A stretch of DNA of 64,000 nucleotides from a virus: the IMG/VR virus record IMGVR_UViG_3300034980_000576, positions 35,322 through 99,321 of that record; one strand, written 5' to 3'. Below, piece after piece: positions 9,807 through 63,080 of the stretch (the stretch's first letter is position 1; each line of letters starts with the position of its first letter). The notes below the pieces were generated by a model. The model made no database searches and was not told the DNA's origin. It was given only the letters and a program-made list of their open reading frames with translations. The position numbers were made by a program, and so were the translations under genes.

Positions 9807-10175
9807 ATGTCTTCTTTAGCTGTGAAATTACCAATTACTCGCAATACAGCCGACGGCTTTACGATGATTAAGAATTTTAAGACTCTGATTAATCAGAATC
9901 TGAAGATGCTCGTCCTCACGGCACCCGGCGAAAGAATAATGGAACCTGCCTTCGGCGTAGGTGCCAGACAATATTTATTTCAAAATTTTGGCAATGATGT
10001 ATATCAAGAAATAGCGGCAAATATCCGGAAACAAGTGAGAGAGTTTATGCCAGCCGTAGGTATACAACAGATAAATTTCGATGATAGTAACCCAAACGTG
10101 CACGTCCTCGGAATAAGAATTGTTTACTCGATACCGGATATTGGAGTAACAGATTTATTAGAATTTACTATTTAA
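9807..10175 (+). CDS. baseplate wedge subunit, GPW/gp25 family
   Basis: QNLKMLVLTAPGERIMEPAFGVG...YLF matches the gp25 signature (LxTxxGERxxxPxFG); 122 aa; directly upstream of the gp6-like gene. Confidence 0.9.
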   Translation: MSSLAVKLPITRNTADGFTMIKNFKTLINQNLKMLVLTAPGERIMEPAFGVGARQYLFQNFGNDVYQEIAANIRKQVREFMPAVGIQQINFDDSNPNVHVLGIRIVYSIPDIGVTDLLEFTI

Positions 10176-39683: not shown

Positions 39684-40238
39684 ATGATTTTAGGTGTCGA
39701 CGTATCAACTAGTATAACGGGATTTGCTGTTGTGGCAGACAATCAATTGGTTTATTATGACTCAATTGATATGAGGAAACACAAAAATGTTTTTGATAAA
39801 ACAATAGCAATCAAAGAAAAGATTTTAGATTTGTTTGAAATGTATCAATGTAATAATGACGATTCAATGCGCCTAGGCAATTCGGATTATCCTATCGAAC
39901 ATATCTATATCGAACAGCCATTCACGTTCTTTAACTCAGGTGGCTCTTCTGCAAAGACGATGGCAACGCTACAAAAGTTTAATGGTATTGTGTCGTGGTT
40001 ATTATTTGAAACTTTTGAAATCCGCCCAGAATATGTAGGGGCTACTACTGCAAGGAAGCATGCCGGCATTAAGGTACCCCGCGGCCAAAAGGCAAAGCAG
40101 GTAGTATTGCAGCATCTTTTAGATACTGAGCCGGCATTTAAAATAGAATATACAAAACATGGAAACCCAAAGCCGGAGTCATATGATCGCGCCGACGCAA
40201 TAGTCGTAGCGAAGGCTGGGTGGAAAATTGAAAATTAA
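39684..40238 (+). CDS. RuvC-like Holliday junction resolvase
   Basis: MILGVDVSTSITG (first catalytic Asp), IYIEQP (Glu) and DRADAIVVA (C-terminal Asps) form the RNase H-fold RuvC pattern. Confidence 0.8.
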   Translation: MILGVDVSTSITGFAVVADNQLVYYDSIDMRKHKNVFDKTIAIKEKILDLFEMYQCNNDDSMRLGNSDYPIEHIYIEQPFTFFNSGGSSAKTMATLQKFNGIVSWLLFETFEIRPEYVGATTARKHAGIKVPRGQKAKQVVLQHLLDTEPAFKIEYTKHGNPKPESYDRADAIVVAKAGWKIEN

Positions 40239-44151: not shown

Positions 44152-47100
44152 GTGAGCATTAAGATTGCGCACGTATCGGATATCCATGTCCGAAAATTAA
44201 AGTACCATAAGGAATACCGCGTAGTATTCCAGCGACTATATGATAAGTTACGCGAACTAAAACCGGATATTATCGTCAATACTGGCGATACGTTCCACAC
44301 TAAATTAGACTTATCCCCGGAGGCTATTCGTATGATGAGCGAGCTATTTGCTGGCTTAGCAGACATTGCTCCGTATTATATGATTCTGGGGAACCATGAT
44401 ATGAATTTGAAGAATGGCGCCCGACTGGATGCCATCACACCGATTGTCGAGAATCTAAAGCACAAGAACGTTCACTTCATTAAGAATAGTGAAGTTATTG
44501 AAGTTGCTGACGGCATTGATCTTCATGTGCTTTCTATTGTCGATCCTGAAAACTGGCAAGAGACACCACCAGACGATCGCGTCAACATCGCATTATATCA
44601 TGGTGCAGTCGTTGGTTCAAAGACGGACACCGGCTGGGTGATGACTCACGGCGATATCGACATAGATACGCTAGCTAAGTATGATTACGGATTATTAGGC
44701 GATATTCATAAGACACACCAGAAGATCGACAATGATGGCAAGTGCGCTTATCCGGGCTCTCTTATTCAACAGAATCACGGGGAAACACCAGACAAGGGTT
44801 TTTTGCTATGGGAGATCGAAGACAAGGACACTTTTGCTTGTAAGCATTTTCAGCTTGAGAACCCAAAACCGTTTATCACCATTCAGCTAACCCCAAAGGG
44901 CAAAATGCCCCGCCGAGCAGATCCTCCAAAGGGCGCCCGTTTGCGCTTAGTGAGCAACAACAATTTACCACTGAATACAATGAAACGAGCAATAGATATT
45001 GCAAAACACCGGTTCAGTCCAGAAGTTGTAACATTCTTGAACAGGGCAGCCGGCGAACGCGGTAACGTAGCAGATATAACAGACTCTTTGAAGACAGAAA
45101 ACCTGAGAGACATCGAGGTTCAAGAAGAGTTGATAGATGAATATCTCAAGGACTATCAAGCTGACGAAGGCACTTTAGAAATGGTTTATCAGCTGAATCG
45201 CAAGTACAAGAAGCAAGTGGAGGATAGCGAAGAGGTGTCCCGCAATGTCAATTGGAAATTAGTAAACTTTGAATTTGATAATCTTTTTAATTACGGCGAA
45301 GGCAACAAGGTTTCGTTTGATAAGCTTAATGGAATTATCGGTGTTTTTGGAAAGAATTATTCTGGAAAGAGTAGCGTTGTCGACAGCGTTCTGTGGACGC
45401 TCTTTAACACAACTTCCAAAAATGAAAGAAAGAATGTCAATGTTATTAATCAAAATAAAGAATCTAGCAGAGGGAAACTAACGATTGAAGTGGGACATAA
45501 GACATACACAATTGAAAGAACAGCAGAGAAATATATCAAGAAACTGAAAGGAGAAGCAACAGAAGAGGCGAAGACGGATTTGAACTTTGAGGTATTTGAC
45601 AAAACCACCGGCGACACCCACTCTCTGAATGGGCTCAGTCGGCCCCAGACAGATGCAAACATTCGCAAGCACTTCGGTACCATCGATGACTTTTTGGTGT
45701 CCTCACTGGCATCCCAACACGGCGCCTTGGCGTTTATTGATGAAGGCTCAACAAGACGAAAAGAGATCATTGCCAAGTTCCTCGATCTGGAAGTGTTCGA
45801 ACAAAAGTTTAAACTAGCGAAAGAAGATAGCACCGATCTGAAAGGGGCACTAAAACGTTTAGAGTCCCGAGAATATGAAGAAGAAATAGAGGAAGCAAAA
45901 GAAGAATTGGACTCGTGCCGAAGTAACCTAGCAGAGCATGAGGCAGTGTGCGAAGAATTGAATAGCGAGATAGAACGACTAACTGACGAGTGCGTGAAAC
46001 TAAACAATATGATCGAATCAATACCGGCAGAGATCATTGACATTGCTGCGACAAGGAAAGAAATTCTTCAAAAGAATGCGAGAGTTAAATCATTAACAAA
46101 CGAGAACAAGAAGAGTGAGATAAACCTCGGAATCAAGAACAAACTCTATGGGAAAATTGAAACGTTTTTAGGCGAAATCGACATCGAGGAACTCACAAAA
46201 ACTCAGAATGAAATTAACACACTAACCGACAACAAACAAATAAAAGAGCAAGAGCTAGCTTCTCTGATTACACAGATAGTAGACATAGAAAAGAAGTCAC
46301 ATCTTCTTGATGATATTCCTTGTGGAACTCAGTTCTCAAGTTGTAAGTTTATTAACGATGCCAACATCGCTGTTGCCAACCTACCACATGTAGAGAATGA
46401 TAGAAGCGATGTTGCTAACAACATTGAAGGATTACAGGATAATATTGATGTCTTAAATCCCATCGATGTTTCAAGACAGATAGATCAACATATACAAATG
46501 GTTGACAAAAGAAACGATATTGCAAACCACATTGCAGCACTTAACCTATCAATAGAAAGAAACATATCCTCTATTGAACGACTTGGCTACGAACTCAAAG
46601 AACTCGAAAGCAAGAAGCAAGAATATGACGAAAACAAAGAAGCCATTGAAAATCTTGAAGAATTAAATGCAGAGTTAATTGCATGCGAAAGAAACCTTAT
46701 CTCCTCAAAACAACGCTGCGATGAGTGTGCTGAGCAGACATTAGAACTATATAAAAATGTAGGCTCGATCGAACAAAAAGTCGAGACAATCGAAAATCAA
46801 AAACAAGAATACCTAGACTTACAGGAGGAATATTCAGCTTATGATCTTTACATGCGTTGTATGCATACATCTGGGATTGCTTATGATATTATTAAGCGCA
46901 AACTCCCGGTTATCAATCAAGAAGTCGCGAAAGTCCTTGCTAACATTGTCGAGTTTGAAGTCTTCTTCGAAGATAGTGGAAAGAAATTTGACATATTTAT
47001 CAAGCACCCAAGACATGAACCCCGCCCAATTGAAATGGCATCAGGAGCAGAGAAATCTTTGGCTGCCATAGCCATTCGTTTGGCTTTGTTGGGAGTATCT

Positions 47101-47310
47101 TCGTTGCCTAAATCTGATCTTTTTGCCCTAGATGAGCCGGGTACCGCTCTAGACGAATCAAATATGGAGGGTTTTATTAGGATTTTGGAACTAATTAAGG
47201 TGTATTTTAAAAACGTTTTGTTGATCTCGCACCTTGATTCGCTCAAAGACTGTGTTGATATGCAAATCGAGATAGATAAGAAAGATGGATACGCGAGAGT
47301 AAATCAATAG
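44152..47310 (+). CDS. fused Mre11/SbcD nuclease - Rad50/SbcC ATPase (gp47-gp46-like recombination nuclease)
   Basis: Phosphoesterase motifs HVSDIH, TGDTFH, GNHD, HG, GDIH, YPGS are followed in frame by Walker A GKNYSGKSS, a coiled coil, signature ASGAE, Walker B ALDEP and ISH. Start placed at GTG 44152 after aggag. Confidence 0.9.
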   Translation: MSIKIAHVSDIHVRKLKYHKEYRVVFQRLYDKLRELKPDIIVNTGDTFHTKLDLSPEAIRMMSELFAGLADIAPYYMILGNHDMNLKNGARLDAITPIVENLKHKNVHFIKNSEVIEVADGIDLHVLSIVDPENWQETPPDDRVNIALYHGAVVGSKTDTGWVMTHGDIDIDTLAKYDYGLLGDIHKTHQKIDNDGKCAYPGSLIQQNHGETPDKGFLLWEIEDKDTFACKHFQLENPKPFITIQLTPKGKMPRRADPPKGARLRLVSNNNLPLNTMKRAIDIAKHRFSPEVVTFLNRAAGERGNVADITDSLKTENLRDIEVQEELIDEYLKDYQADEGTLEMVYQLNRKYKKQVEDSEEVSRNVNWKLVNFEFDNLFNYGEGNKVSFDKLNGIIGVFGKNYSGKSSVVDSVLWTLFNTTSKNERKNVNVINQNKESSRGKLTIEVGHKTYTIERTAEKYIKKLKGEATEEAKTDLNFEVFDKTTGDTHSLNGLSRPQTDANIRKHFGTIDDFLVSSLASQHGALAFIDEGSTRRKEIIAKFLDLEVFEQKFKLAKEDSTDLKGALKRLESREYEEEIEEAKEELDSCRSNLAEHEAVCEELNSEIERLTDECVKLNNMIESIPAEIIDIAATRKEILQKNARVKSLTNENKKSEINLGIKNKLYGKIETFLGEIDIEELTKTQNEINTLTDNKQIKEQELASLITQIVDIEKKSHLLDDIPCGTQFSSCKFINDANIAVANLPHVENDRSDVANNIEGLQDNIDVLNPIDVSRQIDQHIQMVDKRNDIANHIAALNLSIERNISSIERLGYELKELESKKQEYDENKEAIENLEELNAELIACERNLISSKQRCDECAEQTLELYKNVGSIEQKVETIENQKQEYLDLQEEYSAYDLYMRCMHTSGIAYDIIKRKLPVINQEVAKVLANIVEFEVFFEDSGKKFDIFIKHPRHEPRPIEMASGAEKSLAAIAIRLALLGVSSLPKSDLFALDEPGTALDESNMEGFIRILELIKVYFKNVLLISHLDSLKDCVDMQIEIDKKDGYARVNQ

Positions 47311-47321
47311 GAGATTGCAAA

Positions 47322-48590
47322 GTGAAAGTAACCAAGAGACAACTTAAGAAGTTAATCAGGGAAGAACTTGAAAACACCAAAGAACTGGATGAGGTATTCG
47401 GCTTGTTCGGTGATTCTAGGCTCGAAAAGCTTGTACAAAAAAATAAGGCTATGTATCAAAAACTAGCGCAAGATGGACCACTGAACAACATGTCAGTACC
47501 GGATTCTTTTCCGCTTTGGGGCTCAAGCAGAGGCGGCACGAAAGGCGCTTGGCGCAACGCCGATGTCAGGGGCGCCCCAGAGGAGCATATAGAAGCGGTG
47601 ATTGACTTCCTTGCCCGGGCAAACGTCGCCGATGCTCATGACGCCATTCCGAAGATGGGTGAAAGAAAAAGCCCCGTATCTGTGACGTCCCAGATGTATC
47701 GTGCCTATCAATATTTTTTTAATCCAGATAGAGAGTCCGGATCTTGGGAAAAAGACAAAGAAAAGCAAGCCAAAGACGCCGCGTGGAAACAAGGCGCCCC
47801 GGGCCGAGAAAAGGCAGCAGCACAAAGGCGCGCCGGCAAACAACAAGATCTTCTAAATGCATTGATGCCATGGAAGGAGCGTTTGGATTCGTATCAGAAT
47901 GGTATCATGTCACGCAAAGGAATCATTCGAGATCTCAATCGCGATGGTATTACTGATCTGGAGAAAGCCCATGGCTATTTAAAAGATGCCAATGCCGCCT
48001 TGAGAGCAGCCACACAACTTCTAAGAACACCAGAAGGCAAAAAAGCGCTCGGGGACTTTTCCTCACTGACGAGCAACCCTGAAGGTTTTGTGCAAGACCT
48101 TACGAAGATGGTACAACACTTGAAACAGCTGGGCCGCGATGAAGAATCTGTGCGTTCGAGAGACAAGCACGTTGATGATCGTGAAGTTGCCACCGACACC
48201 CATTACGGCGCCGGCGGCGCTCGCAAACGCAAGAGCGACTTTCAACGAACTTCGCGCTTTAACGAATCCCAACTTAAACAGATTATCAAAGAAGAGCTTG
48301 AGGCAGCTTTAAGCGAAAATAAAAGAAATAAAAGCAACAAATTTAAAGATACAGATTTATCAAAGATAAGCAACGACGATCTCACAAGAATGTTGGGTGA
48401 CAACAACGTAGCATTCGGAAATCTTACCGGCGCCAATATCGAGGACTTCGACCAGTGGACCGACGACGAGCATGACAGATTGAACGCTATAGACGGCACC
48501 GCCGAATTACATGCCATCAATCGCGATATTAGGGTTGCCCTAAGAGACAAGTCCGATCGTCGAGCCGGCACGAACGTATTCGGATTTTAA
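47322..48590 (+). CDS. hypothetical protein with type-A leader and a second, internal leader copy
   Basis: GTG start after aggag; MKVTKRQLKKLIREEL at the N-terminus and ESQLKQIIKEELE at 48264..48302. Confidence 0.7.
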   Translation: MKVTKRQLKKLIREELENTKELDEVFGLFGDSRLEKLVQKNKAMYQKLAQDGPLNNMSVPDSFPLWGSSRGGTKGAWRNADVRGAPEEHIEAVIDFLARANVADAHDAIPKMGERKSPVSVTSQMYRAYQYFFNPDRESGSWEKDKEKQAKDAAWKQGAPGREKAAAQRRAGKQQDLLNALMPWKERLDSYQNGIMSRKGIIRDLNRDGITDLEKAHGYLKDANAALRAATQLLRTPEGKKALGDFSSLTSNPEGFVQDLTKMVQHLKQLGRDEESVRSRDKHVDDREVATDTHYGAGGARKRKSDFQRTSRFNESQLKQIIKEELEAALSENKRNKSNKFKDTDLSKISNDDLTRMLGDNNVAFGNLTGANIEDFDQWTDDEHDRLNAIDGTAELHAINRDIRVALRDKSDRRAGTNVFGF

Positions 48591-48603
48591 CAAGGAATAA
48601 ACA

Positions 48604-49746
48604 ATGTCAGACGAAAAAGAAGATAAAAACGAATTTGATTTTCTGCCTCCCGCAGAACCACCTCCCGCGTTCGCGCAGGAAAAAGACAGCTACCACGAAT
48701 CAGTAGACGCTGAAGACTTCGGTATGGTAGAGGACTTCGGATTACAGATGGAATACTCTGATGAAGATTTACTCCCCGAGAACACCGCGCCTTCTTCGAT
48801 TAACGTTGGCTTTGTCGGGGTTGGCGGCGGAGGCAACAAAATGGCGAATGCGTTCATTGAACTTGGATTCAATAAGACGCTACTCGTAAATTCAACAGGT
48901 AAAGACATTCCAAAGAATGTAGAAGAGGATCACGTTGTCCTTATTCCCGACTCAGACGGGATTGGAAAAAACGTAGAATATGGAAAAGAGGTTTTAAGTC
49001 AAAATGGTGCGATTGTTGAAGATGCCCTGCGTATCAAACTCGGTAAAGTTGATTGGTTATTCGTCCTTGCTGGCGGCGGTGGCGGTACCGGTAGTAGTGT
49101 TACCGCTCTGCACCCTGTCTTTGAGCGTTACATGCGCTCTGTGCAGTCGAGTGGCAAGGTCGTTTATATAGTCTCATGGCCCACAGCACAAGAAAACCTT
49201 AACCCAACAATCGCTCGTAATGCGTTGACGCTGGCAAATGATGTTGCACAGCATCCGCATATCGTTCTTGATAACGAACGAGCCACTCGATTACTCCGCG
49301 GCCGAATCGGCATGCTCGGCATGTATCCAGTCGCCAACACAACTTTTGCTAAGTCACTTGCCCAAGTGTTAAAACTCTCCACCGAGGATTCACCGATCCA
49401 ATCTTTCGACAGCAAGGACTTGGAAACATGTCTGGGCAATGACGGTCGTGCCTTTTTAGGCTCAACTATGATAAAGGATCCAAATACTGCTAAGCTTGGA
49501 TCGGTGATTCTCCACAACTGCATGAATCGTTCTGCATGTCCTCCACCGAAAGGTAAGGCTGCTGCAGGATCGTTAGTGCTGGTTGTGTCAGAAGAGATGG
49601 TGGCTGACCCTAAAGTCAGTAAAAACATTGAGTCTGCGATTGCTTATGTCGGCGGTCGATGCGAGACACTTTTCTCTGGCGTTTACGTCCGAAAGAATGT
49701 GCCCGGATTGATTGCGATACTAAGCATGAATGGATTAGCAACATGA
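48604..49746 (+). CDS. tubulin/FtsZ-family GTPase (PhuZ/TubZ/CetZ-like)
   Basis: T1 loop VGVGGGGNKMA, GIGKN, tubulin signature GGGGGTGSS, VLDNE, and T7-like loop SFDSKDL; RBS aagga. Confidence 0.88.
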   Translation: MSDEKEDKNEFDFLPPAEPPPAFAQEKDSYHESVDAEDFGMVEDFGLQMEYSDEDLLPENTAPSSINVGFVGVGGGGNKMANAFIELGFNKTLLVNSTGKDIPKNVEEDHVVLIPDSDGIGKNVEYGKEVLSQNGAIVEDALRIKLGKVDWLFVLAGGGGGTGSSVTALHPVFERYMRSVQSSGKVVYIVSWPTAQENLNPTIARNALTLANDVAQHPHIVLDNERATRLLRGRIGMLGMYPVANTTFAKSLAQVLKLSTEDSPIQSFDSKDLETCLGNDGRAFLGSTMIKDPNTAKLGSVILHNCMNRSACPPPKGKAAAGSLVLVVSEEMVADPKVSKNIESAIAYVGGRCETLFSGVYVRKNVPGLIAILSMNGLAT

Positions 49747-50036
49747 AACTAATATTTGAAAATTGGCGAAAGCATTTGGTAGAATACGGATTAGATCGGG
49801 ATGAGCAAGCTAAGGCCCGTGATCATTATTATAATATTAAAAGCGCCATCGCCGATGCTCTAACAGAGCAGGGCAATGATTGGGCTCTTGATGAGTCGAA
49901 ATGGGAAGAAATTATAATTCCATCTGGCGGAAGCGAACAGGACCATGTTAGGTTTGTTCAAGAACTCCAAGCATTTATGCAAACTATGCAACTTGGCGAT
50001 CTAAAAGATTTAGGTGTCTTAATTGAGCCATACTAG
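49743..50036 (+). CDS. cassette protein, type-B leader (MKLIFENWRKHLVE)
   Basis: The ATG lies within the repeat and overlaps the tubulin TGA; the track's upstream extension overlaps tubulin and is unlikely. Confidence 0.7.
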   Translation: MKLIFENWRKHLVEYGLDRDEQAKARDHYYNIKSAIADALTEQGNDWALDESKWEEIIIPSGGSEQDHVRFVQELQAFMQTMQLGDLKDLGVLIEPY

Positions 50037-50054
50037 TATAACAGGATTAACTAC

Positions 50055-50345
50055 ATGAAGATTACAAAACAACAACTTAAACAAATTATCAAAGAAGAGC
50101 TTTCAAAGGTTATGAATGAAAGCATGCCCGGTATGGAGCCTTATGACTTGAGTGCTTTGGTGCCAAAAGGCGAAGACCCTAAAAAAAGGGCTGCAGCCAT
50201 CAAAGCTGGTCGCGACGATTTTCATAATCTCGGCAAACTCGACGATACATGGAAAAAGACCCGTTACTATAAGTATTATAAGGATGCCTTTTATAATGCG
50301 AAGGATGAACAAGATGCCGGCTTCGTAGATAGAATGGGCGAATAA
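50055..50345 (+). CDS. cassette protein, type-A leader
   Basis: MKITKQQLKQIIKEEL; flanked by repeats. Confidence 0.75.
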   Translation: MKITKQQLKQIIKEELSKVMNESMPGMEPYDLSALVPKGEDPKKRAAAIKAGRDDFHNLGKLDDTWKKTRYYKYYKDAFYNAKDEQDAGFVDRMGE

Positions 50346-50364
50346 GTATGAATGGATTAGCAAC

Positions 50365-50601
50365 ATGAAACAACTGTTTGAAAATTGGCGAAAGTGTTTA
50401 AACGAAGTCTCAATGGACGATGTGCACAAATTGTTTGTAAAGTACGATCTTCCAGAAAAAGAAGAACAACTTGTTGTCAAAGCCGCCGAACAAGCTGTCT
50501 TAAATAAAGACAAGGTGATGTTTGATAACTTGCCGGCAAACTTAAAAGCTGCAGCAAAAGAATTAATTGATATAAACATGCAACTGCGCAAGGGTTTATA
50601 A
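50365..50601 (+). CDS. cassette protein, type-B leader
   Basis: MKQLFENWRKCLNE; flanked by two identical 28-bp repeats. Confidence 0.75.
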   Translation: MKQLFENWRKCLNEVSMDDVHKLFVKYDLPEKEEQLVVKAAEQAVLNKDKVMFDNLPANLKAAAKELIDINMQLRKGL

Positions 50602-50620
50602 GTATGAATGGATTAGCAAC

Positions 50621-51118
50621 ATGAAAATCACAAAATCACAACTTAAACAGATTATCAAAGAAGAGCTTACAAATACTTTGAGCGAGATCTCGGCCGCCGA
50701 CGCCGAATCAATACTGGCACCCGCAGAGCCGCAAGACAACCTGCCGCGTGATGTCAGGAAAAAGGCTTTCGGCTCCGAAGGAGCAGAAGTGCTCGACATG
50801 CTCGACCCCGAAGCAGTGCTCAGCGCCGCCCGAAACTCAGAAGAATATAAACACACAACAGCCCGCTACTCTCGGTCCGCGGCCAACCAACTAGGATATG
50901 TAAGTCATGACCCAGTTTTACACATGGTGATAAACGGTATGTGTAAAACCATGGGGAAGGGCGACAATTGCCAACCTATTTATCATCATGGTGATCGTGA
51001 ATATGGATATCGGATAAACTTTGGATTATTCGGCCCAGTAGGTAAAAGAACCAAATTTGGAAAAATGGTAGATGATCTTTATGATCAAATATCGAACGAG
51101 TTAAAGCCCAAAGCATGA
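50621..51118 (+). CDS. cassette protein, type-A leader
   Basis: MKITKSQLKQIIKEEL; ends KA* within the next repeat. Confidence 0.75.
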   Translation: MKITKSQLKQIIKEELTNTLSEISAADAESILAPAEPQDNLPRDVRKKAFGSEGAEVLDMLDPEAVLSAARNSEEYKHTTARYSRSAANQLGYVSHDPVLHMVINGMCKTMGKGDNCQPIYHHGDREYGYRINFGLFGPVGKRTKFGKMVDDLYDQISNELKPKA

Positions 51119-51146
51119 ATGGATTAGCAACATAAAGGATAATAAA

Positions 51147-51425
51147 ATGAAGATTACAAAACAACAACTTAAACAGATTATCAAAGAAGAGCTTGAGAAT
51201 TTAATAGAAGCAGACGAAGCATGGGTTTTAAGAAAGTCTGGCGCCAGTGACGCTAGCTCCTTCCTACATCCAACCCCTGCATCGGATCAGAAAAAGGGAA
51301 ATTATAAGTGGGGAGCCAAGGAAGGCGCCCGCACTTTTAAAGGCGAAAATGCGAAGCTTCGTGCCGAGGACGAGAAAAAAAGATTAGCAGAGAAAGGCAT
51401 TACTGTTAGTATAGAGAAGAAATAG
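51147..51425 (+). CDS. cassette protein, type-A leader
   Basis: MKITKQQLKQIIKEEL; RBS aagga. Confidence 0.75.
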   Translation: MKITKQQLKQIIKEELENLIEADEAWVLRKSGASDASSFLHPTPASDQKKGNYKWGAKEGARTFKGENAKLRAEDEKKRLAEKGITVSIEKK

Positions 51426-51899
51426 ATGAAACAACTATTTGAAAATTGGAACAGATACTTGAATGAAGGAGGCGCCGTCGGGCACCTTTTTGGAGTAGAT
51501 GATAATCCAGATTTATCCCAAGATCGAGATGGATTTAAAACCGCTAAAAAACCCATTCCATTAGAATTTAGATATGCCGAAGCCGATGAGACAATCGAAA
51601 CAAAGGAAGGCCCCGTTGGCGCTAATGCTGGAGATGCTATTATGACCGGCACAGAAGGCGAGCAATGGCCAATCCCCGCAGAGAAGTTCGCGCAAACATA
51701 TAACGATCTTGGAGATGGCACAGCATCGAAGAAAGACATTCCAGTTTTTGCCAAGCAAATGATGGTTCCCTTCAAGGTCAAAGTATCGTGGTCAAATGAT
51801 TTACTCCAAGGAGAGCCGGGAGACTATTTAGTACAATACGGCCCGGGCGATTATGGGGTGGTTGGTAGAGAAATCTTTGCCAAAACTTACAAAGCATGA
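51426..51899 (+). CDS. cassette protein, type-B leader fused to PGDYG-family domain
   Basis: MKQLFENWNRYLNE, then IETKEGPV...GDAIMTGTEGEQWPI...F..TY, repeated as GDYLVQYGPGDYGVVGREIFAKTY. Confidence 0.75.
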   Translation: MKQLFENWNRYLNEGGAVGHLFGVDDNPDLSQDRDGFKTAKKPIPLEFRYAEADETIETKEGPVGANAGDAIMTGTEGEQWPIPAEKFAQTYNDLGDGTASKKDIPVFAKQMMVPFKVKVSWSNDLLQGEPGDYLVQYGPGDYGVVGREIFAKTYKA

Positions 51900-51929
51900 A
51901 TGGATTAGCAATATAAAAGGAATAATATA

Positions 51930-52508
51930 ATGGCTATAAGAAAAAACAAGAAATTTATTGATCCTCGTTACTTTATGGACGAGAAGACCGAGACCACTAA
52001 CGAAGCGTGGGATCCACATGGGAACTGGAAATCCCGATTCCCAGACGGACGCTCTAAAGGTAGTGACGCCGAGCCTGAAACGGATGAAGAGCGTGCACAC
52101 CGCCGGGCAAAAGAAGCCCGCGAAGATGAACGACGCAGAGAGGCTGGTCTCCCGCCAAGAAAAAGCAAGTACTTTGAAGAGAACGAAAACGAATCACCAT
52201 ACGAGCCAGATCCTCGTCTAACCCGCGGCCTGGAAAAATCTATGGCTGCCGGAGAAGCAGATAGGGCGCCCGAAGAGATCATGCGCGATGTCGCCGACGC
52301 CATAGCAGACAAGTTTAATGTCGAGGCATCCGTTGAGATCGCTAGCGATGGAAAGCCTGCTATTTTGGTAACACATCAAGATGGAGAAACTACAGCATAT
52401 GACGACACCGAAGAAATGTACAAAGATTTAGCAGATGAAATAGGTCGCGATATACATGGCGACTCCGATCGAGATGAAGATAATTGGCTGTACGGTGCGG
52501 AGTATTAA
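51930..52508 (+). CDS. cassette protein, highly charged hypothetical
   Basis: RBS aagga; N-terminus MAIRKNKKFIDPRYFMDE. Confidence 0.65.
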   Translation: MAIRKNKKFIDPRYFMDEKTETTNEAWDPHGNWKSRFPDGRSKGSDAEPETDEERAHRRAKEAREDERRREAGLPPRKSKYFEENENESPYEPDPRLTRGLEKSMAAGEADRAPEEIMRDVADAIADKFNVEASVEIASDGKPAILVTHQDGETTAYDDTEEMYKDLADEIGRDIHGDSDRDEDNWLYGAEY

Positions 52509-52513
52509 GAAAA

Positions 52514-52801
52514 ATGAAAATCACTAAATCACAACTTAAACAGATTATTGTAGAAGAACTTAGAGACTACTACGGTGGAGAATCGCACCCTCAATCAGAG
52601 CGTGATGCTGCGCAGCCTCGCCGTCCCGAAGCCGACAGTTTTTCGGGTCATTTGTCCCTGTCCAATTCCATCCGCGATGCTATCATCGGTCATCTGGAGA
52701 ATGAGAAGTTTTTCGAGATGGGCGCGATTCCGCAATCCGTTATCAGAGTTATTGAAAATTCCTCCGTACGTATCTCCGACGCAGTGGAAGGAATGGATTA
52801 G
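52514..52801 (+). CDS. cassette protein, type-A leader
   Basis: MKITKSQLKQIIVEEL from ATG 52514; its TAG stop is inside the repeat. Confidence 0.7.
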   Translation: MKITKSQLKQIIVEELRDYYGGESHPQSERDAAQPRRPEADSFSGHLSLSNSIRDAIIGHLENEKFFEMGAIPQSVIRVIENSSVRISDAVEGMD

Positions 52802-52805
52802 CAAC

Positions 52806-52898
52806 ATGAAGATCACCAAGTCCCAACTTAAACAAATTATCAAAGAAGACACCGAGGATTCCACAAAGAACTCAAAACGAGCAAAAGGATTAAGTTAA
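52806..52898 (+). CDS. 30-aa leader-only ORF (possible cassette remnant)
   Basis: MKITKSQLKQIIKEDTEDSTKNSKRAKGLS*; the ATG is in the repeat and the stop overlaps the next ATG. Confidence 0.5.
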   Translation: MKITKSQLKQIIKEDTEDSTKNSKRAKGLS

Positions 52899-53191
52899 TG
52901 AATTTATTAAAAGAATTTTGGAATTGGTTTACAACACCAAAAGAGGATGCATGTTGTACAGAACCGCAGGAGGCTACACCAGTCGAGGTCGAGGAAGACT
53001 GCTGTGGAAAATTATTTCTTGAAATGCTCCAGCGCGCCGGCATCTCAAAATATGTGATCAAGGTCAACGGTATAGAGCTTTTTGAAGGTTGGTATGACGG
53101 CCCGTGCACCGAAGAGGCAATTCTAGAAGCACTTCCGGGGTTTAAAGAAGTCTACCCTGTTGTGGGTGCAAAAATGTGTGGGCGCCTATAA
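52898..53191 (+). CDS. hypothetical Cys-rich protein
   Basis: 97 aa, coupled to its neighbours; two CC pairs. Confidence 0.55.
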   Translation: MNLLKEFWNWFTTPKEDACCTEPQEATPVEVEEDCCGKLFLEMLQRAGISKYVIKVNGIELFEGWYDGPCTEEAILEALPGFKEVYPVVGAKMCGRL

Positions 53192-53192
53192 A

Positions 53193-53630
53193 ATGAAAAT
53201 CACTAAGTCTCAACTCAAGCAGATCATTAAAGAAGAAATCTTTTCTATGAATGAGTACGGTTCAGTCTCTAATTTTGGAGGCATGGCCACAAGTTTGGCG
53301 TCCGTTAGGGAACCAGTGAACCACATGCAGGATGGGCCTGACTCTATTGTGCAGTCAAAAGCGACAGGATTTTTTATGGACTTAGGCTTGAACGCCGAGA
53401 TTACGGCCGTTATGGTTAATAATATTGCTATTCCGGATTTAATTTCTGTCATGGAGAAAATACCCAAAATCTGGACGGCAGATGAAGAGCCGTTGGAAGA
53501 AGTGTCCTCGGAAAAACAACGCCGCTGGGCATGCGCGCAAAAAGATAAGCCGGCCAGCGACCGCGCTGATAGCCTCTCAGCAAAAGAAGCAGAAGAGATG
53601 TGCACATCAAAAATAGAAGAAGACGATTGA
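53193..53630 (+). CDS. hypothetical protein with type-A leader
   Basis: MKITKSQLKQIIKEEI from ATG 53193; C-terminal SEKQRRWACAQ. Confidence 0.7.
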   Translation: MKITKSQLKQIIKEEIFSMNEYGSVSNFGGMATSLASVREPVNHMQDGPDSIVQSKATGFFMDLGLNAEITAVMVNNIAIPDLISVMEKIPKIWTADEEPLEEVSSEKQRRWACAQKDKPASDRADSLSAKEAEEMCTSKIEEDD

Positions 53631-53674
53631 GCGGATAAAGAGAAGTCCGGTCGGACTCGACATTGGAGTGATAA

Positions 53675-53875
53675 ATGATGGTAAAAGCACAGGCGTTTGT
53701 AGACACATGGTTAGCTAAACTCACATCCCGTAAGCTTATGGTGTGGGCTACTGCAACTGCCCTAACTTTTACTGGGCATGTAACGAGCGAAGACTGGGTT
53801 TTGATTTCGGCGATCTATATTGGAGGCCAGACTATTATTGATGGTGTTGCTAGGCTGCGAGGATATAATGATTAA
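53675..53875 (+). CDS. putative holin
   Basis: 66 aa, dual Met start after RBS ggag, LTSRKL followed by two hydrophobic segments. Confidence 0.5.
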   Translation: MMVKAQAFVDTWLAKLTSRKLMVWATATALTFTGHVTSEDWVLISAIYIGGQTIIDGVARLRGYND

Positions 53876-54251
53876 GAAACAAATATTGAGCTTCACGTTA
53901 AAGAACTGGAAGGCAATACTAATCGTGTTGCTTTCTCTCGTTGTGGCTATGAAAACTCGCTATGATTATAGCTTGATGCTCAAAGCACATGAGGTTCAAT
54001 CGGATTCCCACAAAGCACAAATTGCCGGGCTCAAAGAAATTCACAAGCAGGAGATTCGAGAAAAGCAATTGTTGATGGAAAGCTTCTTAGAGTCAATTGC
54101 AACAATTGAAGAAGAGTACGAGAAGGCTCAAGAGGAGCTTGAAACACTTCGAGAGAAAAAGAATAGCGAATACAAAAGAAAATTCAGACATGATAAGCAT
54201 GCACTAATTAAAGATATAGAGACAAAGTTTGGTATTGAATATGTTCCTTAA
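53868..54251 (+). CDS. putative i-spanin-like protein (N-terminal TM + coiled coil)
   Basis: WKAILIVLLSLVVAM TM segment, then a helical charged region; follows the holin-like gene; ATG 53868 after gagga. Confidence 0.45.
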   Translation: MIKKQILSFTLKNWKAILIVLLSLVVAMKTRYDYSLMLKAHEVQSDSHKAQIAGLKEIHKQEIREKQLLMESFLESIATIEEEYEKAQEELETLREKKNSEYKRKFRHDKHALIKDIETKFGIEYVP

Positions 54252-54660
54252 TCTTCTTTTGATGTTGAGTCTTTCGGCAAATGCAACGGAGCCTGCCAAA
54301 TTTTCCATACTGGAGTATAAGGCGCCCGCACCGTTCGCAGGTGTAATTTTTGATGAGAAAGCCATGGCAAAGATGTTATCAGATTATGATCTTGCTATGT
54401 ATGCTTGTGACATAAAAACTGAATACCAACTAAAGATTCAAAAAGAAGAGTACGACTTTAAGCTGAAAAATCTAAAAATAGAACATAAAGCCTTAACAGA
54501 TGAATACGATTTGTTTATAATGCAAAAGGATAAAGAGATTAATATATTGGCAGACTCACTAAAAAAAACTTCCCCGGGCTACAAATGGTTGTATTTTGCT
54601 GGTGGGATCCTTATTGGTACTGCAAGCTCTTACGGCGTATATAGGGCATTAAATGACTAA
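54241..54660 (+). CDS. secreted/membrane protein (signal peptide, coiled coil, C-terminal TM); possible spanin partner
   Basis: MFLNLLLMLSLSANA signal-like N-terminus; WLYFAGGILIGTASSYGVY C-terminal TM; overlaps the previous gene. Confidence 0.45.
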   Translation: MFLNLLLMLSLSANATEPAKFSILEYKAPAPFAGVIFDEKAMAKMLSDYDLAMYACDIKTEYQLKIQKEEYDFKLKNLKIEHKALTDEYDLFIMQKDKEINILADSLKKTSPGYKWLYFAGGILIGTASSYGVYRALND

Positions 54661-55042
54661 AAAAGATTTAAATTATATTGCAGCCGTTGAGAAAGCAATC
54701 ACCGACAAATATGGAGAAGAAACCGTACAGAACCCAAGAACTGAGTGGGGCCCCGATCGAGAGAAAGAACACCTCTTGCAAATGAAAGAGTTATATGAAA
54801 AAACACTCAGGAATGAAGCAGCTACAGAGAAAGTAGACATAAATGGTATAAAGGTTTCAAAAAAACTACTTAATAGGGAGCCTTTGAAGAAATGTCCCAC
54901 TTGCGGTATATTGCCGCGAAAATCCCGGGATGATATTAGTCTTCTAAAATTTCAGTGTTGTTATACATGCTATATTCAATACGTGGAAGGAAGAGAGGAT
55001 AGGTGGGAAAAAGGATGGAGACCCAATGAAACTAAATTCTAG
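54653..55042 (+). CDS. hypothetical protein with C-terminal CxxC..CxxC zinc finger
   Basis: CPTC ... CYTC. Confidence 0.6.
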   Translation: MTKKDLNYIAAVEKAITDKYGEETVQNPRTEWGPDREKEHLLQMKELYEKTLRNEAATEKVDINGIKVSKKLLNREPLKKCPTCGILPRKSRDDISLLKFQCCYTCYIQYVEGREDRWEKGWRPNETKF

Positions 55043-55373
55043 AACCCTTAAAGACATGATAAAAGAAGTTCTTTCTGAGGAAAACCAAGTCGATCCCACC
55101 AAATTAAAATCAACTGCGATGTCCACGTCGCAGAGGAAACAAACCAGTGTTGATAGAATCACCACAGATGATTCCGAGTTTACTTCACAAGAAAAGGGAA
55201 TCCTAGATCAAATAGAAGGCTTTCTGTCAGACCTGGCAGCCCAACCCGGAGTTGATATGACAAAGTATCGCAGCCAACTCGAACGAGTCATGAAACTTTT
55301 ACAACAATCTGTTTCTTCGACAAGCTCAGCTGCAGAGCAACCCCAACCACCAACAATAAGAGGACAACAATAA
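55026..55373 (+). CDS. hypothetical protein with divergent type-A leader
   Basis: MKLNSRTLKDMIKEVLSE; RBS ggag. Confidence 0.6.
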   Translation: MKLNSRTLKDMIKEVLSEENQVDPTKLKSTAMSTSQRKQTSVDRITTDDSEFTSQEKGILDQIEGFLSDLAAQPGVDMTKYRSQLERVMKLLQQSVSSTSSAAEQPQPPTIRGQQ

Positions 55374-55921
55374 TGGCAACGGTTTATGAAATTGTACAGG
55401 GTTTATCCCAAGCAGCAGCAAATGCATATGACGGAGCATTGGACGAGAAGGGCGAGCCCCTCAAAGCCAGTCTCCAGAGAGAAGAAGGAGACCCAATTCT
55501 TGATAGAAGAGTTATCGACGGCTTCGGTGTTAAATTTTACGGAAACATGATGTGTATCACATATCACTCAGAAGTTCAGTTAAAAGAAGTACACGTACCC
55601 GGCTTTGAAGATGATATTGTTAGCAAGATTGGAGATATATCAAAATTTCTTAAAAAAGAATATAAAAAGATCACCGGCTCCCCCGTCACTTTAACTGCGT
55701 CTGGAGACGCCGAGGTTACTGTCGAGTCTACATCCCGGATCCGGTCTTGGGTCGTCGCGAAGATGCACTATAAGGTCGGCGGCCTTGACGAAGAAATGGG
55801 GATACTGCCAGACTCAAAAAAGAAACCAGAAGGCAGTTGGCAGGATTTTATGTCCCAGGGCGGCTGGAATGGAACCGGCGGCAAGCGCCCACAAAACGAT
55901 ACCAGAAAAAAGGAATCGTAA
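55373..55921 (+). CDS. hypothetical protein
   Basis: 182-aa ORF, RBS gagga, coupled to the upstream stop. Confidence 0.65.
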   Translation: MATVYEIVQGLSQAAANAYDGALDEKGEPLKASLQREEGDPILDRRVIDGFGVKFYGNMMCITYHSEVQLKEVHVPGFEDDIVSKIGDISKFLKKEYKKITGSPVTLTASGDAEVTVESTSRIRSWVVAKMHYKVGGLDEEMGILPDSKKKPEGSWQDFMSQGGWNGTGGKRPQNDTRKKES

Positions 55922-55922
55922 A

Positions 55923-56672
55923 ATGAAAATCGCCAAGTCCCAACTGCAACAAATTATTATAGAAGAATATCTCCGCGAAGAAGGAATTCAGTTAGAGGCT
56001 TTAGATCCAGATAAATTTGAAGAGTTTAAGGCGTGGGTTAATAAGACCGGCCCAAAACCCGACTGGCTCGATGACTATGGTAAAAGCAAAAAGCACGTAC
56101 CGAATGCTCCCTCCGTACCGGACAACGCTCTCAGTGCCCTCGAAACAATGCCCATGGATATCCCATCAGATGACGCCACAGAGCGCGATGTTGGTAGCTT
56201 CCAAGATCGATCCGGCCCATCTGACGGCCCTTTAGCGGATCCGAGAGACATGTCAGATGAAGATCTTGTTGATGCTATTTCGAATATGATCCAAGGTCGA
56301 GATCCTGAGCGCGTAGCTGAGCTTTTTCAGGTGGTGTTTTCTAATCTCCCTGACGTGGAAATGTCTTCTCCGGAAGATGAAATACCCGGCACGGAATATG
56401 TTCCCGGAGCAATGGGCCGACCAACAGCTGGCTTCAAGCTTGAAGAACTAAAGGGTTTGATCAGAGAAGTATTGGCAGAAGGCCACTACCACGACATGGG
56501 CGCCGAAGACGAAATGTACGACGCATTAGATCCTCACGGATTTAACAAAATGTCTGATGCGCAGATAGTTGATCAAGCTTGGAAAGATGGAATTGAAGAA
56601 ATGATTGCGCTTGATGGCGAAGGCACCATCGCCAATAGAGAAGAGGTTATAGCAGCACTACAAGATGTATGA
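55923..56672 (+). CDS. acidic hypothetical protein with type-A leader
   Basis: MKIAKSQLQQIIIEEYL from ATG 55923 after aagga; internal LEELKGLIREVLAE. Confidence 0.65.
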   Translation: MKIAKSQLQQIIIEEYLREEGIQLEALDPDKFEEFKAWVNKTGPKPDWLDDYGKSKKHVPNAPSVPDNALSALETMPMDIPSDDATERDVGSFQDRSGPSDGPLADPRDMSDEDLVDAISNMIQGRDPERVAELFQVVFSNLPDVEMSSPEDEIPGTEYVPGAMGRPTAGFKLEELKGLIREVLAEGHYHDMGAEDEMYDALDPHGFNKMSDAQIVDQAWKDGIEEMIALDGEGTIANREEVIAALQDV

Positions 56673-58252
56673 GTTTTCAACTAACGAAAAAAGAGCAAGT
56701 AAAAGAAATATTGAAATGTGGCAAGGATCCATCTTACTTTCTTAAAAATTTCGCCCGGATATCTCATCCGATGCACGGGCAGATCCTTTTTGATACATAT
56801 GATTTTCAAGATTTGCTCCTCACTGATTTTAACGATTATCGATTTAACGTTATTTTGAAAGCAAGACAACTTGGGATATCAACCATTACCGCGGGCTATA
56901 TCGCTTGGATGATGTTATTCCACAGGGATAAGTCTATTTTGGTTATGGCAACAAAGTTTGCAACTGCTGGTAACTTGGTTAAAAAAGTCAAGAGCATTAT
57001 GAAAAATCTACCGCATTGGATACGTATTTCTTCCATATCTGTCGACAACCGAACTTCATTTGAATTATCGAATGGCTCTTCAATTAAAGCGGCATCTACT
57101 TCTGGTGATGCGGGTCGTTCTGAAGCCCTGTCTCTCTTGGTCCTCGACGAAGCTGCCCACATTGAGGGTCTTGAAGGATTGTGGACCGGTCTATATCCCA
57201 CGCTCTCAACTGGTGGCCGCTGCATCGCGCTCTCAACCCCGAATGGCGTGGGGAACTGGTTTCATAGAGCTTGTATGGATGCGGAAGCCGGCACTAATAA
57301 TTTCAATTTAACTACGCTCGCTTGGGATGTTCACCCCGATCGCGACGAGATCTGGTATCAGAAAGAAACCAAGAATATGTCTAAGAGACAGATTGCACAA
57401 GAGCTAGAATGTAATTTTAACACTTCTGGAGAAACTGTAGTAGATCCAGAATGTATGGAGTGGCTGCTTTCTAATGTGACCGATCCTAAACATAAAACCG
57501 GCTTCGATCGCAACTTTTGGATTTGGGAAGAATTCGATCCCACCTGCAACTATTTGATGGTTGCAGATGTTGCCCGCGGCGATGGAGCGGACTTCTCAGC
57601 GTTTCATATAATAAAGCTTGAAACACTACAAGTGGTAGGGGAATACCAAGGAAAGCCCTCCCTGGATATGTACGCGGGGATGCTTAATCAAATAGGAAGA
57701 GAGTACGGCAATTGTATGCTTGTGGTCGAAAATAATAATGTCGGTTACTCTGTGCTAAATAAATTGATAGAACATGGATACCCAAATGTATATCATTCTA
57801 TAAAGTCTAGTCACGAATATATAGAGCAATATCAAGCCGAAGGCATATCTTCGGCGGTCCCCGGATTTACAACTTCTATGAAAACTAGACCACTTATAAT
57901 CGCGAAAATGGAAGAGTTTATAAGAAATAAACTAATTACCATATATTCTTCTCGCACAATCAGCGAGATGAAGACTTTTATTTGGAGGAATGGTAAACCC
58001 CAGGCGATGAAAGGATACCATGATGATCTTATCATGGCTCTCGCAATTGCATGCTGGGTTAGAGACACCGCACTTCAAAGTAATGCCCGAGACTTAAATT
58101 ATCAAAGAGCTTTTGCAAATGCGATTATAACTTCAAAAACCACAATGAATACGAAAATAAGTGGTCAACATGGCTACAAAAAAGATAATATTTTTGATAA
58201 AATGAGTGAAGCAGAGAAAATGTACCAACAATATAAATGGATTATAAAGTGA
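56669..58252 (+). CDS. terL: terminase large subunit (T4 gp17-like)
   Basis: Walker A KARQLGIS, Walker B LVLDEAAH, coupling motif STPNG, nuclease motifs ADVARGDGADFSA and HDDLIMA. Confidence 0.95.
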   Translation: MSFQLTKKEQVKEILKCGKDPSYFLKNFARISHPMHGQILFDTYDFQDLLLTDFNDYRFNVILKARQLGISTITAGYIAWMMLFHRDKSILVMATKFATAGNLVKKVKSIMKNLPHWIRISSISVDNRTSFELSNGSSIKAASTSGDAGRSEALSLLVLDEAAHIEGLEGLWTGLYPTLSTGGRCIALSTPNGVGNWFHRACMDAEAGTNNFNLTTLAWDVHPDRDEIWYQKETKNMSKRQIAQELECNFNTSGETVVDPECMEWLLSNVTDPKHKTGFDRNFWIWEEFDPTCNYLMVADVARGDGADFSAFHIIKLETLQVVGEYQGKPSLDMYAGMLNQIGREYGNCMLVVENNNVGYSVLNKLIEHGYPNVYHSIKSSHEYIEQYQAEGISSAVPGFTTSMKTRPLIIAKMEEFIRNKLITIYSSRTISEMKTFIWRNGKPQAMKGYHDDLIMALAIACWVRDTALQSNARDLNYQRAFANAIITSKTTMNTKISGQHGYKKDNIFDKMSEAEKMYQQYKWIIK

Positions 58253-61590: not shown

Positions 61591-62130
61591 ATGACATCTA
61601 AAATGAAAATTATATTAGAAAGATGGGATAGCTATCTTATCTTTGAGGAGGATACACTGTCACAACTCAAAGACGATCCTGCTGCAGTGGAAGAGCTAGC
61701 AGACGATGTTGCGCGCATTAAGGATAGAAAGAGGCTGCAAGCCGTTTTAAATGCATTAGCAGCCGATCCTCAAGTAATGCAGGTGGTTAGCGCACTCAAG
61801 GAGCTTGCACAAGAGGTTGATGACACCCCTGCCGATGTAGAGGAGAACCTATCCGACGACTTCCTCGGACTCGCGACTCAAGGATATGTAAGTGCCCGGA
61901 ACTTGTTGGACACTGAAGCCGCTCGAAAAATAATGAAGGTGGCACCACCCCTGCTGGCTTTGGGTCTTATCGCCTTCAAGCTAACGAGTGGCGGTGGCAT
62001 GGACCCTGATGACGGTGGTATGCTGTCAACAATTTTAAAAACCACCGGCAAGACTGACTTCGAGTCAGTCCTCGGTTTCATGGGTGCCGGCGCTGAGGGC
62101 GCCATAACGGAGAGACGATGGAGCTACTAA
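61591..62130 (+). CDS. hypothetical protein with type-B-like leader and hydrophobic segment
   Basis: MKIILERWDSYLIFE; VAPPLLALGLIAF. Confidence 0.6.
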   Translation: MTSKMKIILERWDSYLIFEEDTLSQLKDDPAAVEELADDVARIKDRKRLQAVLNALAADPQVMQVVSALKELAQEVDDTPADVEENLSDDFLGLATQGYVSARNLLDTEAARKIMKVAPPLLALGLIAFKLTSGGGMDPDDGGMLSTILKTTGKTDFESVLGFMGAGAEGAITERRWSY

Positions 62131-62471: not shown

Positions 62472-63080
62472 ATGGGTCAAAAATTATTGAGAGAATATTA
62501 CGAACTTTGCGATGGCGGAGTTTGTCAGGATTTGCTTACAGAAGAAGAGAAGAGATTCGTTTCTGGAGGTGGTATGATTTTGAGCGGCATTATTCAGCGC
62601 TCTGATACCGTTAATGGTAACGGTCGAGTATATCCCCACGGAGTTCTCGTAAGAGAGATGAAAAACTACGAGAAGCTCGTCAAAGAACGGAGAGCCCTAG
62701 GTGAACTAGATCACCCGGAAGACTCTGTTATCAATCTTCGTAATGCCTCACACATGATGACTGAGGTATGGTGGGACGGTAAGAGTGTCATGGGTAAGGC
62801 CAAAGTACTCGACACGCCCTCCGGCAAGGTGCTTCAGGAGCTTGTGAGAGCCGGTGTAGCCATCGGCATATCCTCGAGGGGTATGGGCTCTGTCTCAGAG
62901 TCACAAGGCAACACAGTGGTGGAGGACGACTTTCAACTAATCTGTTTTGATTTCGTCTCTGAACCATCGACGCCCGGCGCTTTCATGATGAAAGAGGCCA
63001 AAGATTATGAGAACAAAGTATTCACCAAAGCTGATAAAATTAACAGGCTTTTAAACGAGATATTATTCGATGAAGAATGA
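62472..63080 (+). CDS. prohead core protease (T4 gp21-like)
   Basis: GIIQ....NGNGRVYP, ALGELDHP (catalytic His), GISSRGMGS (catalytic Ser), DFVSEPSTPGA. Confidence 0.93.
   Translation: MGQKLLREYYELCDGGVCQDLLTEEEKRFVSGGGMILSGIIQRSDTVNGNGRVYPHGVLVREMKNYEKLVKERRALGELDHPEDSVINLRNASHMMTEVWWDGKSVMGKAKVLDTPSGKVLQELVRAGVAIGISSRGMGSVSESQGNTVVEDDFQLICFDFVSEPSTPGAFMMKEAKDYENKVFTKADKINRLLNEILFDEE

Follow-up and report, generated by a model that had tools for sequence, protein, structure and literature searches.

The stretch of DNA analyzed here (the window; 64,000 nucleotides, positions 35,322 to 99,321 of IMG/VR record IMGVR_UViG_3300034980_000576) comes from an uncultured, marine, T4-like phage of ~190 to 195 kb and contains a hyperplastic region, which is bounded by a tubulin/FtsZ-like gene and the conserved gene that follows. 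Eleven small genes, hereafter called cassettes, fill this region, and they are punctuated by a short direct repeat, R, which comprises the last codons of the tubulin gene up to the start codon of the gene that follows. We propose, with a probability of roughly 70%, that the copies of the tubulin tail and the leader codons of the cassettes enable general homologous recombination to insert, remove, and reorder ready-to-translate cassettes in this polar region.

The window and the whole 99,321-bp contig were searched for the repeat with tolerance for mismatches, using shuffled sequences as the null. The 20-mer GAATGGATTAGCAACATGAA was found six times, always on the + strand, without mismatch at 49728, 50350, 50606, and 52791, with one mismatch at 51117 and two at 51898, against a chance expectation of 0 matches. 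Its 13-nt core, ATGGATTAGCAAC, begins at 49730, 50352, 50608, 51119, 51900, and 52793. R extends over 22 to 26 nt, with the consensus (ATA)CTAAG(T/C)ATGA-ATGGATTAGC(A/G)AC, and its six copies lie within 49717 to 52805. A seventh, degenerate copy starting at 50030 is weak but real. These data bear out the sequence-only reading of this DNA, which had described an array punctuated by repeats of the tubulin 3' end. No further copy of the core, allowing for one mismatch, is present elsewhere in the contig, which excludes a genome-wide promoter or operator. In five complete relatives (CheckV-complete, 187 to 196 kb), every exact copy of the core was located inside the array locus, and just two 1-mismatch matches were found outside.

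R also does double duty at gene boundaries, at the positions that had been proposed. Five upstream open reading frames (ORFs) terminate inside it, at its TAA, TGA, or TAG, four ORFs start at its own ATG, and the degenerate copy precedes an ATG as well (Table 1). The copies at 51117 and 51898 have ATA in place of the ATG, and a separate AAGGA Shine-Dalgarno sequence and ATG follow 10 to 15 nt on. As the upstream genes read R in different frames, it is an element at the DNA or RNA level rather than a common peptide. RNA folding of the six junctions was no better than that of shuffled sequences (z-scores of −0.17 to +1.67), with neither a hairpin nor an inverted repeat. Scans of positions 47000 to 57000 yielded 15 promoters (16.7 expected) and 9 terminators (10.5 expected), none of them at R. 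An Rfam scan of the same interval returned nothing at R, its sole match being to an sRNA family on the minus strand (53515 to 53602; E 0.88), far below the gathering score.

We compared the locus among relatives, defined as 80 IMG/VR contigs whose tubulin is 86 to 99% identical in amino acid sequence to that of the window (at least 150 IMG/VR contigs carry this tubulin; 154 loci were fetched, with labels L001 and so on). The first conserved gene past the array, d1, served as the right-hand anchor. The interval from the tubulin stop codon to d1 ranges from 28 to 6332 bp, and each locus has 0 to 6 copies of R, with the core at the tubulin tail in most relatives and 0 to 5 more copies inside the interval. 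Almost none of the eleven cassettes of the window recur in the 80 relatives, and cassette content differs in almost every one of them. The accordion predicted from the window thus exists at the level of the population. Loose clustering sorts the 303 cassette ORFs into 107 families of bodies and strict clustering into 194, of which 147 are singletons, and the tubulin tail adjoins 39 different downstream families.

Reshuffling at R, which had likewise been predicted, can be seen in several pairs of loci. L017 and L029 have the cassettes A23, B24, and C3 in common but in a different order, and their blocks of homology start 9 to 20 nt before a repeat core, two of the three ending ~15 nt into the next one. 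L010, L019, and L029 share one upstream cassette and the R that follows it, after which three different cassettes are found. Over all non-identical loci, 29 of the 122 left ends of internal homology blocks fall at R, compared with 3% for random positions, an 8-fold enrichment. The array is also polar, with the fastest turnover at the tubulin-proximal end and the most stable genes at the distal end. Over 75 loci, the cassettes directly behind tubulin represent 41 families, compared with 13 families for the last cassettes before d1, and the median relative position in the array is 0.02 for R-led cassettes and 0.51 for the remainder. The leader-D gene (see below) is often first behind the tubulin tail in short arrays and distal in long ones, which fits nested additions at the tubulin end.

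The form of the internal copies points to their origin. The consensus of 61 of them spans ~25 nt (CTAAGTATGA-ATGGATTAGCAAC-AT). The extension to the left, into tubulin codons, has modes of 9, 11, and 13 nt, seldom exceeds 13 nt, and matches tubulin in most copies. On the right side R runs straight into ATG, into ATAGGAGnnnnnAAATG, or into A(A)AAGGAATAAT..ATG. These three variants (direct ATG, ATAGGAG..ATG, and A(A)AAGGA..ATG) occur both at tubulin tails and at internal copies, the AAGGA form being relatively commoner internally, and the tubulin stop codon itself alternates between TGA, TAG, and TAA among relatives while the peptide ..SMNGLAT stays. Such variation is expected if each internal copy was once a tubulin tail and has kept the junction that lay behind it. 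A more direct footprint is present in L001 (3870 to 3960), where a second tubulin tail (the last ~52 nt) is accompanied by the first codons of the next gene; this duplicate of 66 nt is 98.5% identical to its source. A short microhomology marks its fusion to codon 8 of a leader-C gene (first codons MAIRKNKK), which is truncated as a result. This is a recent duplication of the tail that has not yet decayed. Where the tubulin tail is divergent, the lineage lacks internal copies both of its own type and of the canonical one. The footprints show the internal copies to be former tubulin tails.

The sequence-only reading regarded the cassettes as mutually unrelated. This is true of their bodies but not of their N termini, as four leaders with sharp boundaries account for the starts of most cassettes: A (MKITKSQLKQIIKEEL; 16 amino acids, 102 unique sequences), B (MKKLFENWRKHLNE; 14 amino acids), C (MARRKNTKRIDPRYFMDEKT; 20 amino acids), and D (MNWLKxLW..). 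One body (..KSPERADDQQSYEMAM..) is found with leader A, C, or B (L019:2546-2812, L029:2083-2382, L033:5137-5754, and L017:11410-11805), and in its C versions leader C is spliced into the IIKEE part of leader A. The leaders are therefore interchangeable modules and a second recombination handle. Over the ORFs of all loci, the cassette proteins have a median length of 115 amino acids and a median pI of 5.1, with 69% below pI 6. The last residues of leaders A, B, and C are L/I/M-x-E, as in the sites at which the T4 gp21 protease cuts. By analogy, the cassettes probably encode capsid-targeted accessory proteins that are cut by the gp21-type protease of this phage and injected.

From these data the following scheme can be drawn. 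An internal copy of R arises by illegitimate, microhomology-mediated, or unequal crossing over, in which the end of an array is joined to the tubulin tail of another genome or of a sister molecule. Each copy then ends the upstream cassette, with stops in two frames, and sits directly before the next start codon, so that the cassettes stay translatable in one polycistronic message. R and the 45 to 60 nt of leader codons that often follow may form a homology patch of 25 to 95 nt for general recombination, by a UvsX/RecA-type recombinase and an SbcCD/gp46-47-type nuclease. At this patch, as the comparative breakpoints suggest, cassettes would be gained, lost, and reordered within a genome and between co-infecting relatives. 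Their products may be targeted to the capsid, cut by a T4 gp21-type prohead protease, and injected like the T4 internal proteins. The recombination machinery of the phage itself had been suggested as the agent. This agrees with the presence of a RecA/UvsX gene in 5 of 5 complete relatives and of an SbcCD-type nuclease gene next door (the SbcC-like gene at 44332 to 47310, just upstream of the tubulin region), whereas the supposed RuvC-like gene at 39684 to 40238 gave no match in a Pfam search.

Several points weigh against this scheme. For the right ends of internal homology blocks there is no enrichment at R and only a mild one in leaders. Only about one-third of the cassettes are R-led, and many junctions lie at the start of a leader or in an ordinary Shine-Dalgarno region; for instance, between the window and L009 the junction of the PGDYG cassette is at the leader start, without R. 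It follows that R is a frequent handle among several rather than the sole one. Most families being singletons, just 6 of 74 cassette families follow at least two different partners, and direct evidence for reshuffling thus amounts to a handful of cases. The gain and loss of cassettes at R is deduced from comparative breakpoints, with no event seen directly. The sharp 13-nt limit on the left would fit one ancestral duplication spread by recombination as well as selection on a defined element. Finally, the cassette ORFs were called naively (ATG starts only, in a greedy manner), which makes the counts approximate.

The strongest alternative is that R is kept mainly as a cis-acting expression element, either a stop-restart module for translational coupling or the site of a locus-specific translational regulator, its role in recombination being incidental. 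R always lies immediately 5' of a start codon, with a GGA 8 nt before its ATG that resembles the GGA-7 nt-ATG spacing at the tubulin start, and its RNA lacks structure, a trait of good initiation regions. Its stops in two frames are put to use, in that 46 of the 61 internal copies terminate an upstream ORF of 40 codons or more. Conservation of the 13-nt core reaches at least 90% over the internal copies while the flanks decay, in part an effect of how the copies were found. Homologous cassette pairs in which the conservation of R could be set against that of the adjacent bodies were too few (3 under strict and 23 under loose criteria), and the left half of R was variable. The internal copies also remain of the consensus type where the tubulin tail of the same genome has drifted at synonymous sites, contrary to the idea that the repeat of each relative would match its own tubulin tail.

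Other features fit such a function poorly. The ATG of R is lost in 32 of the 61 internal copies, where a stronger AGGAG or AAGGA Shine-Dalgarno sequence and an ATG follow, yet R persists; in those copies it is a relic or a handle and not an initiation site. In addition, two-thirds of the cassettes do without R, it is absent from the remainder of five ~190-kb genomes, and the L001 copy is a duplication footprint that truncates a gene. As R is often not an initiation site, we rank an expression element alone below a footprint and handle, and consider it unlikely.

The tubulin gene had been regarded as a conserved core behind which cassettes are added, dropped, or shuffled. It is itself a recently exchanged island of low synonymous divergence (dS) rather than a passive anchor. 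Compared with five relatives (L003, L004, L005, L009, and L017), the dS of tubulin is 0.33 to 0.43, whereas the nuclease, terminase, and portal genes are saturated (proportion of synonymous differences [pS], ~0.8). The corresponding island of identity (48584 to 49777 in the window; 92% of nucleotides versus ~72%) starts 12 to 20 nt ahead of the start codon of tubulin and extends as far as R or the leader. In random pairs of loci, the median pS is 0.6 for tubulin and 0.78 for the large terminase (TerL), including in a subset ascertained through TerL, and a gap of more than 0.2 between the two is found in a third of the pairs, the reverse in none. Among 491 contigs, even the closest TerL has no more than 90% amino acid identity, whereas tubulin reaches 99%. 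In L067 the gene order is inverted relative to the window, with tubulin (1362 to 2486) before the SbcCD-like nuclease gene (4286 to 7261), and its tubulin module comprises an upstream HNH gene and three leader-A cassettes; the module thus seems to have moved as a unit. Low tubulin divergence amid saturated neighbors indicates that tubulin alleles are exchanged among deeply diverged backgrounds, with the array at the right edge of a mobile island. The island suggests that this supposedly conserved anchor is itself being exchanged, which bears on the use of such genes as phylogenetic markers.

A candidate for driving this exchange was found in L075, where an ORF of 222 amino acids (11136 to 11804) resembling HNH/EndoVII endonucleases is inserted ~30 nt before the tubulin stop codon. 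It matches phrog_1035 (E 1.5e-20) and has the motif HIDH..NL.PLC; Pfam gave no match at E 0.01, although PHROGs matched endonuclease families. The tubulin tail is densely recoded before this ORF, and the ancestral tail and R are left behind it. A paralogue (48 to 52% identical) lies just upstream of tubulin in L075 (9320 to 9961), L063 (9320 to 9961), and L067 (664 to 1311). The L075 ORF looks like a free-standing homing endonuclease. In T4, such enzymes are encoded by the seg and mob genes and are associated with localized marker exclusion. The HNH-type ORF in or next to a conserved gene, the recoded flanking target in L075, and the low-divergence island around it are all reminiscent of seg and mob.

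It may be, then, that the tubulin tail is the target of a homing endonuclease, whose breaks during co-infection would drive repair from other genomes, co-conversion sweeping tubulin alleles along. Besides the L075 insertion with its recoded target and the upstream paralogues, the low dS of tubulin, a pS relation that is never reversed in the population, the limits of the identity island, and the position of the L067 module on the other side of the nuclease gene would agree with this idea. In contrast with T4, however, an endonuclease gene is present in just 3 of the 154 fetched loci, at the tail only once, and the window's own contig has none; recombination between two flanking hypervariable regions, or a selective sweep, would also produce a low-dS island. 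We regard homing at R as improbable. The HNH genes adjoining tubulin in three loci are a possible, if rare, driver of tubulin exchange. Equally doubtful is a broader version, in which canonical copies of R would be cut by HNH homing endonucleases during co-infection, and repair would promote the capture of cassettes next to tubulin as well as sweeps of tubulin alleles across deeply diverged genomes; this hot spot and the capsid-targeting leaders together would make up a programmed diversity generator for injected anti-defence proteins, an analogue of the integron built from homing and general recombination.

The array had also been described as integron-like. In a true system of this kind, a site-specific recombinase would capture circular cassettes at an att-like site formed by R. 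The resemblance lies in the layout only: cassettes of one gene each in one orientation, a repeated site at the junctions, and polar growth, with the highest turnover at one end. The lack of a visible integrase, as noted for the window, was upheld in the five complete relatives, in which we found no tyrosine recombinase (Phage_integrase, PF00589; 14 of 14 controls positive) and no serine recombinase (Resolvase, PF00239; 0 of 5, positive controls used). Unlike in integron arrays, there is thus no IntI-type integrase, R has no inverted repeat or attC-type hairpin, and the breakpoints are scattered over R, leaders, and microhomologies instead of one fixed position. Integron-type capture in the strict sense was rejected as effectively refuted. 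Chance similarity or an assembly artefact can be dismissed, as six copies were found where shuffles predict 0, R is in our judgement shorter than a typical read or assembly k-mer, and the same architecture recurs in dozens of independently assembled contigs from different samples.

Contrary to the view that no phage system with this layout had been described, the locus extends gene shuffling already known in T4-type phages and works like PeSL shuffling and the T-even internal-protein loci. PeSLs, which consist of a sigma70-type early promoter and a terminator stem-loop, flank small ORFan genes in T4-type hyperplastic regions, and homologous recombination between them explains insertions, deletions, and replacements, with small patches of homology sufficing and no dedicated recombinase known (Arbiol et al. 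2010, PMC2839356; Comeau et al. 2014, PMC4122927). Inverse PCR has been applied to PeSL mini-circles, which are excised by recombination between neighboring repeats (PMC2839356). Here, too, a phage with T4-type terminase, portal, and gp21 protease has short conserved repeats flanking small ORFan cassettes, and relatives differ by indels and replacements with breakpoints in the repeats, through their left and not their right ends. Unlike PeSLs, R has no promoter, terminator, or hairpin, and its source is the coding 3' end of a conserved gene. It joins the cassettes into an apparently single, polycistronic, and translationally coupled message, whereas PeSL cassettes are transcriptionally insulated, and it is restricted to one polar locus, whereas PeSLs occur in many hyperplastic regions. 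R thus has the same mode of action but, given its composition, falls outside the definition of a PeSL. Recombination handles in T4-type hyperplastic regions accordingly need not be regulatory cassettes, since a copy of a coding 3' end without promoter or terminator may serve.

For the T-even internal-protein (ip) loci, Repoila and colleagues reportedly proposed in 1994 (EMBO J 13:4181, cited as ref. 27 of PMC12373910) that conserved boundary blocks with translation signals mediate recombinational shuffling. These loci are described (PMC3012670; PMC12373910) as containing polymorphic small genes that are unrelated save for a short N-terminal leader. The number, order, and identity of small genes likewise vary between close relatives here, unrelated genes begin with a short conserved leader, and a gp21-type protease is present. 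The known T4 Ip1 to Ip3 are injected anti-restriction proteins. The leaders of the array (MKITKxQLKQIIKEEL, MKxLFENWRKxLNE, MARRKNxKRIDPRYF..) are of at least four types, swapped on the same body; compared by eye with the T4 capsid-targeting sequence (MKTYQEFIAE type), they have no recognizable similarity beyond the MK start and the L/I-x-E ending, and they are too short for an alignment statistic. Other differences are that the junction repeat is a copy of the tail of the neighboring gene, and that at least 107 families occur in 80 contigs, compared with roughly ten described ip genes.

If the scheme is correct, marine T4-like phages of an abundant group maintain a very large common pool of small tagged genes in one place, far from saturated by the families found so far, and the sequence reveals the rules of exchange. 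It would then become testable how phages without an integrase diversify accessory proteins, which are probably injected and directed against defence systems, and whether a short leader predicts capsid cargo.

Table 1. Features of the array from the tubulin gene to the first conserved gene beyond it (positions in the window)
Feature	Position	Strand	Remarks
Tubulin/FtsZ-family gene, 380 amino acids	48604..49746	+	Pfam PF00091, E 2.3e-8, above the cut-off; last codons ..ILSMNGLAT* form R0; stop TGA at 49744..49746
R0, tubulin tail: ATACTAAGCATGA + core ATGGATTAGCAAC	49717..49742	+	ATG 49743 follows, overlapping the tubulin stop TGA
Cassette 1, 97 amino acids, leader B (MKLIFENWRK..)	49743..50036	+	Homologues (80 to 82%) only in L006 and L016
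Degenerate repeat copy	50030..50054	+	Matches at ~19 of 24 positions and one gap, by inspection of the sequence; before ATG 50055
Cassette 2, 96 amino acids, leader A (MKITKQQLKQIIKEEL)	50055..50345	+	Stop TAA within R1
R1: TAAGTATGA + core	50343..50364	+	ATG 50365 directly after
Cassette 3, 78 amino acids, leader B	50365..50601	+	Stop TAA within R2
R2, same 28-mer as R1	50599..50620	+	Then ATG 50621
Cassette 4, 165 amino acids, leader A	50621..51118	+	Stop TGA within R3
R3: AAAGCATGA + core	51110..51131	+	ATG changed to ATA, then AAGGATAATAAA and ATG 51147
Cassette 5, 92 amino acids, leader A	51147..51425	+	No repeat between cassettes 5 and 6
Cassette 6, 157 amino acids, leader B + PGDYG domain	51426..51899	+	Pfam PF14083, E 9e-19; stop TGA within R4
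R4: TACAAAGCATGA + core variant ATGGATTAGCAAT	51888..51912	+	Then ATAAAAGGAATAATATA and ATG 51930
Cassette 7, 192 amino acids, leader C (MAIRKNKKFIDPRYFMDEKT)	51930..52508	+	
Cassette 8, 95 amino acids, leader A	52514..52801	+	Stop TAG within R5; homologues of the body in L024, L049, and L062
R5: core, left extension of just 3 nt	52790..52805	+	Then ATG 52806
ORF of 30 amino acids, leader A + short basic tail	52806..52898	+	Probably a truncated cassette left by a recombination event
Cassette 10, 97 amino acids, leader D (MNLLKEFWNW..)	52898..53191	+	Comparatively conserved distal member of the array
Cassette 11, 145 amino acids, leader A	53193..53630	+	Distal member without repeat
d1, first conserved gene past the array	53675..53875	+	Present in all 80 relatives

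The identification of the tubulin gene, first made from the sequence alone, was confirmed by Pfam (Table 1). In Pfam and PHROGs searches, the cassettes of the window gave nothing beyond the PGDYG domain of cassette 6, homologues of which stand directly behind a repeat copy in L009 and L023. The large terminase is of the T4 type (46% identical to that of Flavobacterium immuto phages and 44% to that of Microcystis phage Mel-JY01), and a T4-type portal is encoded downstream. A gp21-type prohead protease gene is present at 62472 to 63080 (Peptidase_S77, PF03420, E 1.5e-32; phrog_207). It is flanked by leader-B-like genes at 61591 to 62130 and 63070 to 63861 (..KIILERWDSYL and ..KIINERWDRYLKEE), where T4 has prohead core or scaffold genes.

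Upstream of tubulin, R-like copies with one core mismatch were noticed in L039 (~9950 to 10000) and L001 (~554). In L039 this copy adjoins the conserved upstream gene at its 3' end (..GCAAGAGTAAATCAATAGGAG), an end that itself resembles the R core (GGATACGCAAG versus GGATTAGCAAC). In the window, the gene between the nuclease and tubulin genes (47322 to 48590) has a leader-A-like start at a GTG codon and a second, internal leader-A-like stretch (..NESQLKQIIKEELEAAL, at about 48246 to 48300). This gene is missing from nearly all relatives, indicating that the region upstream of tubulin is hypervariable as well.

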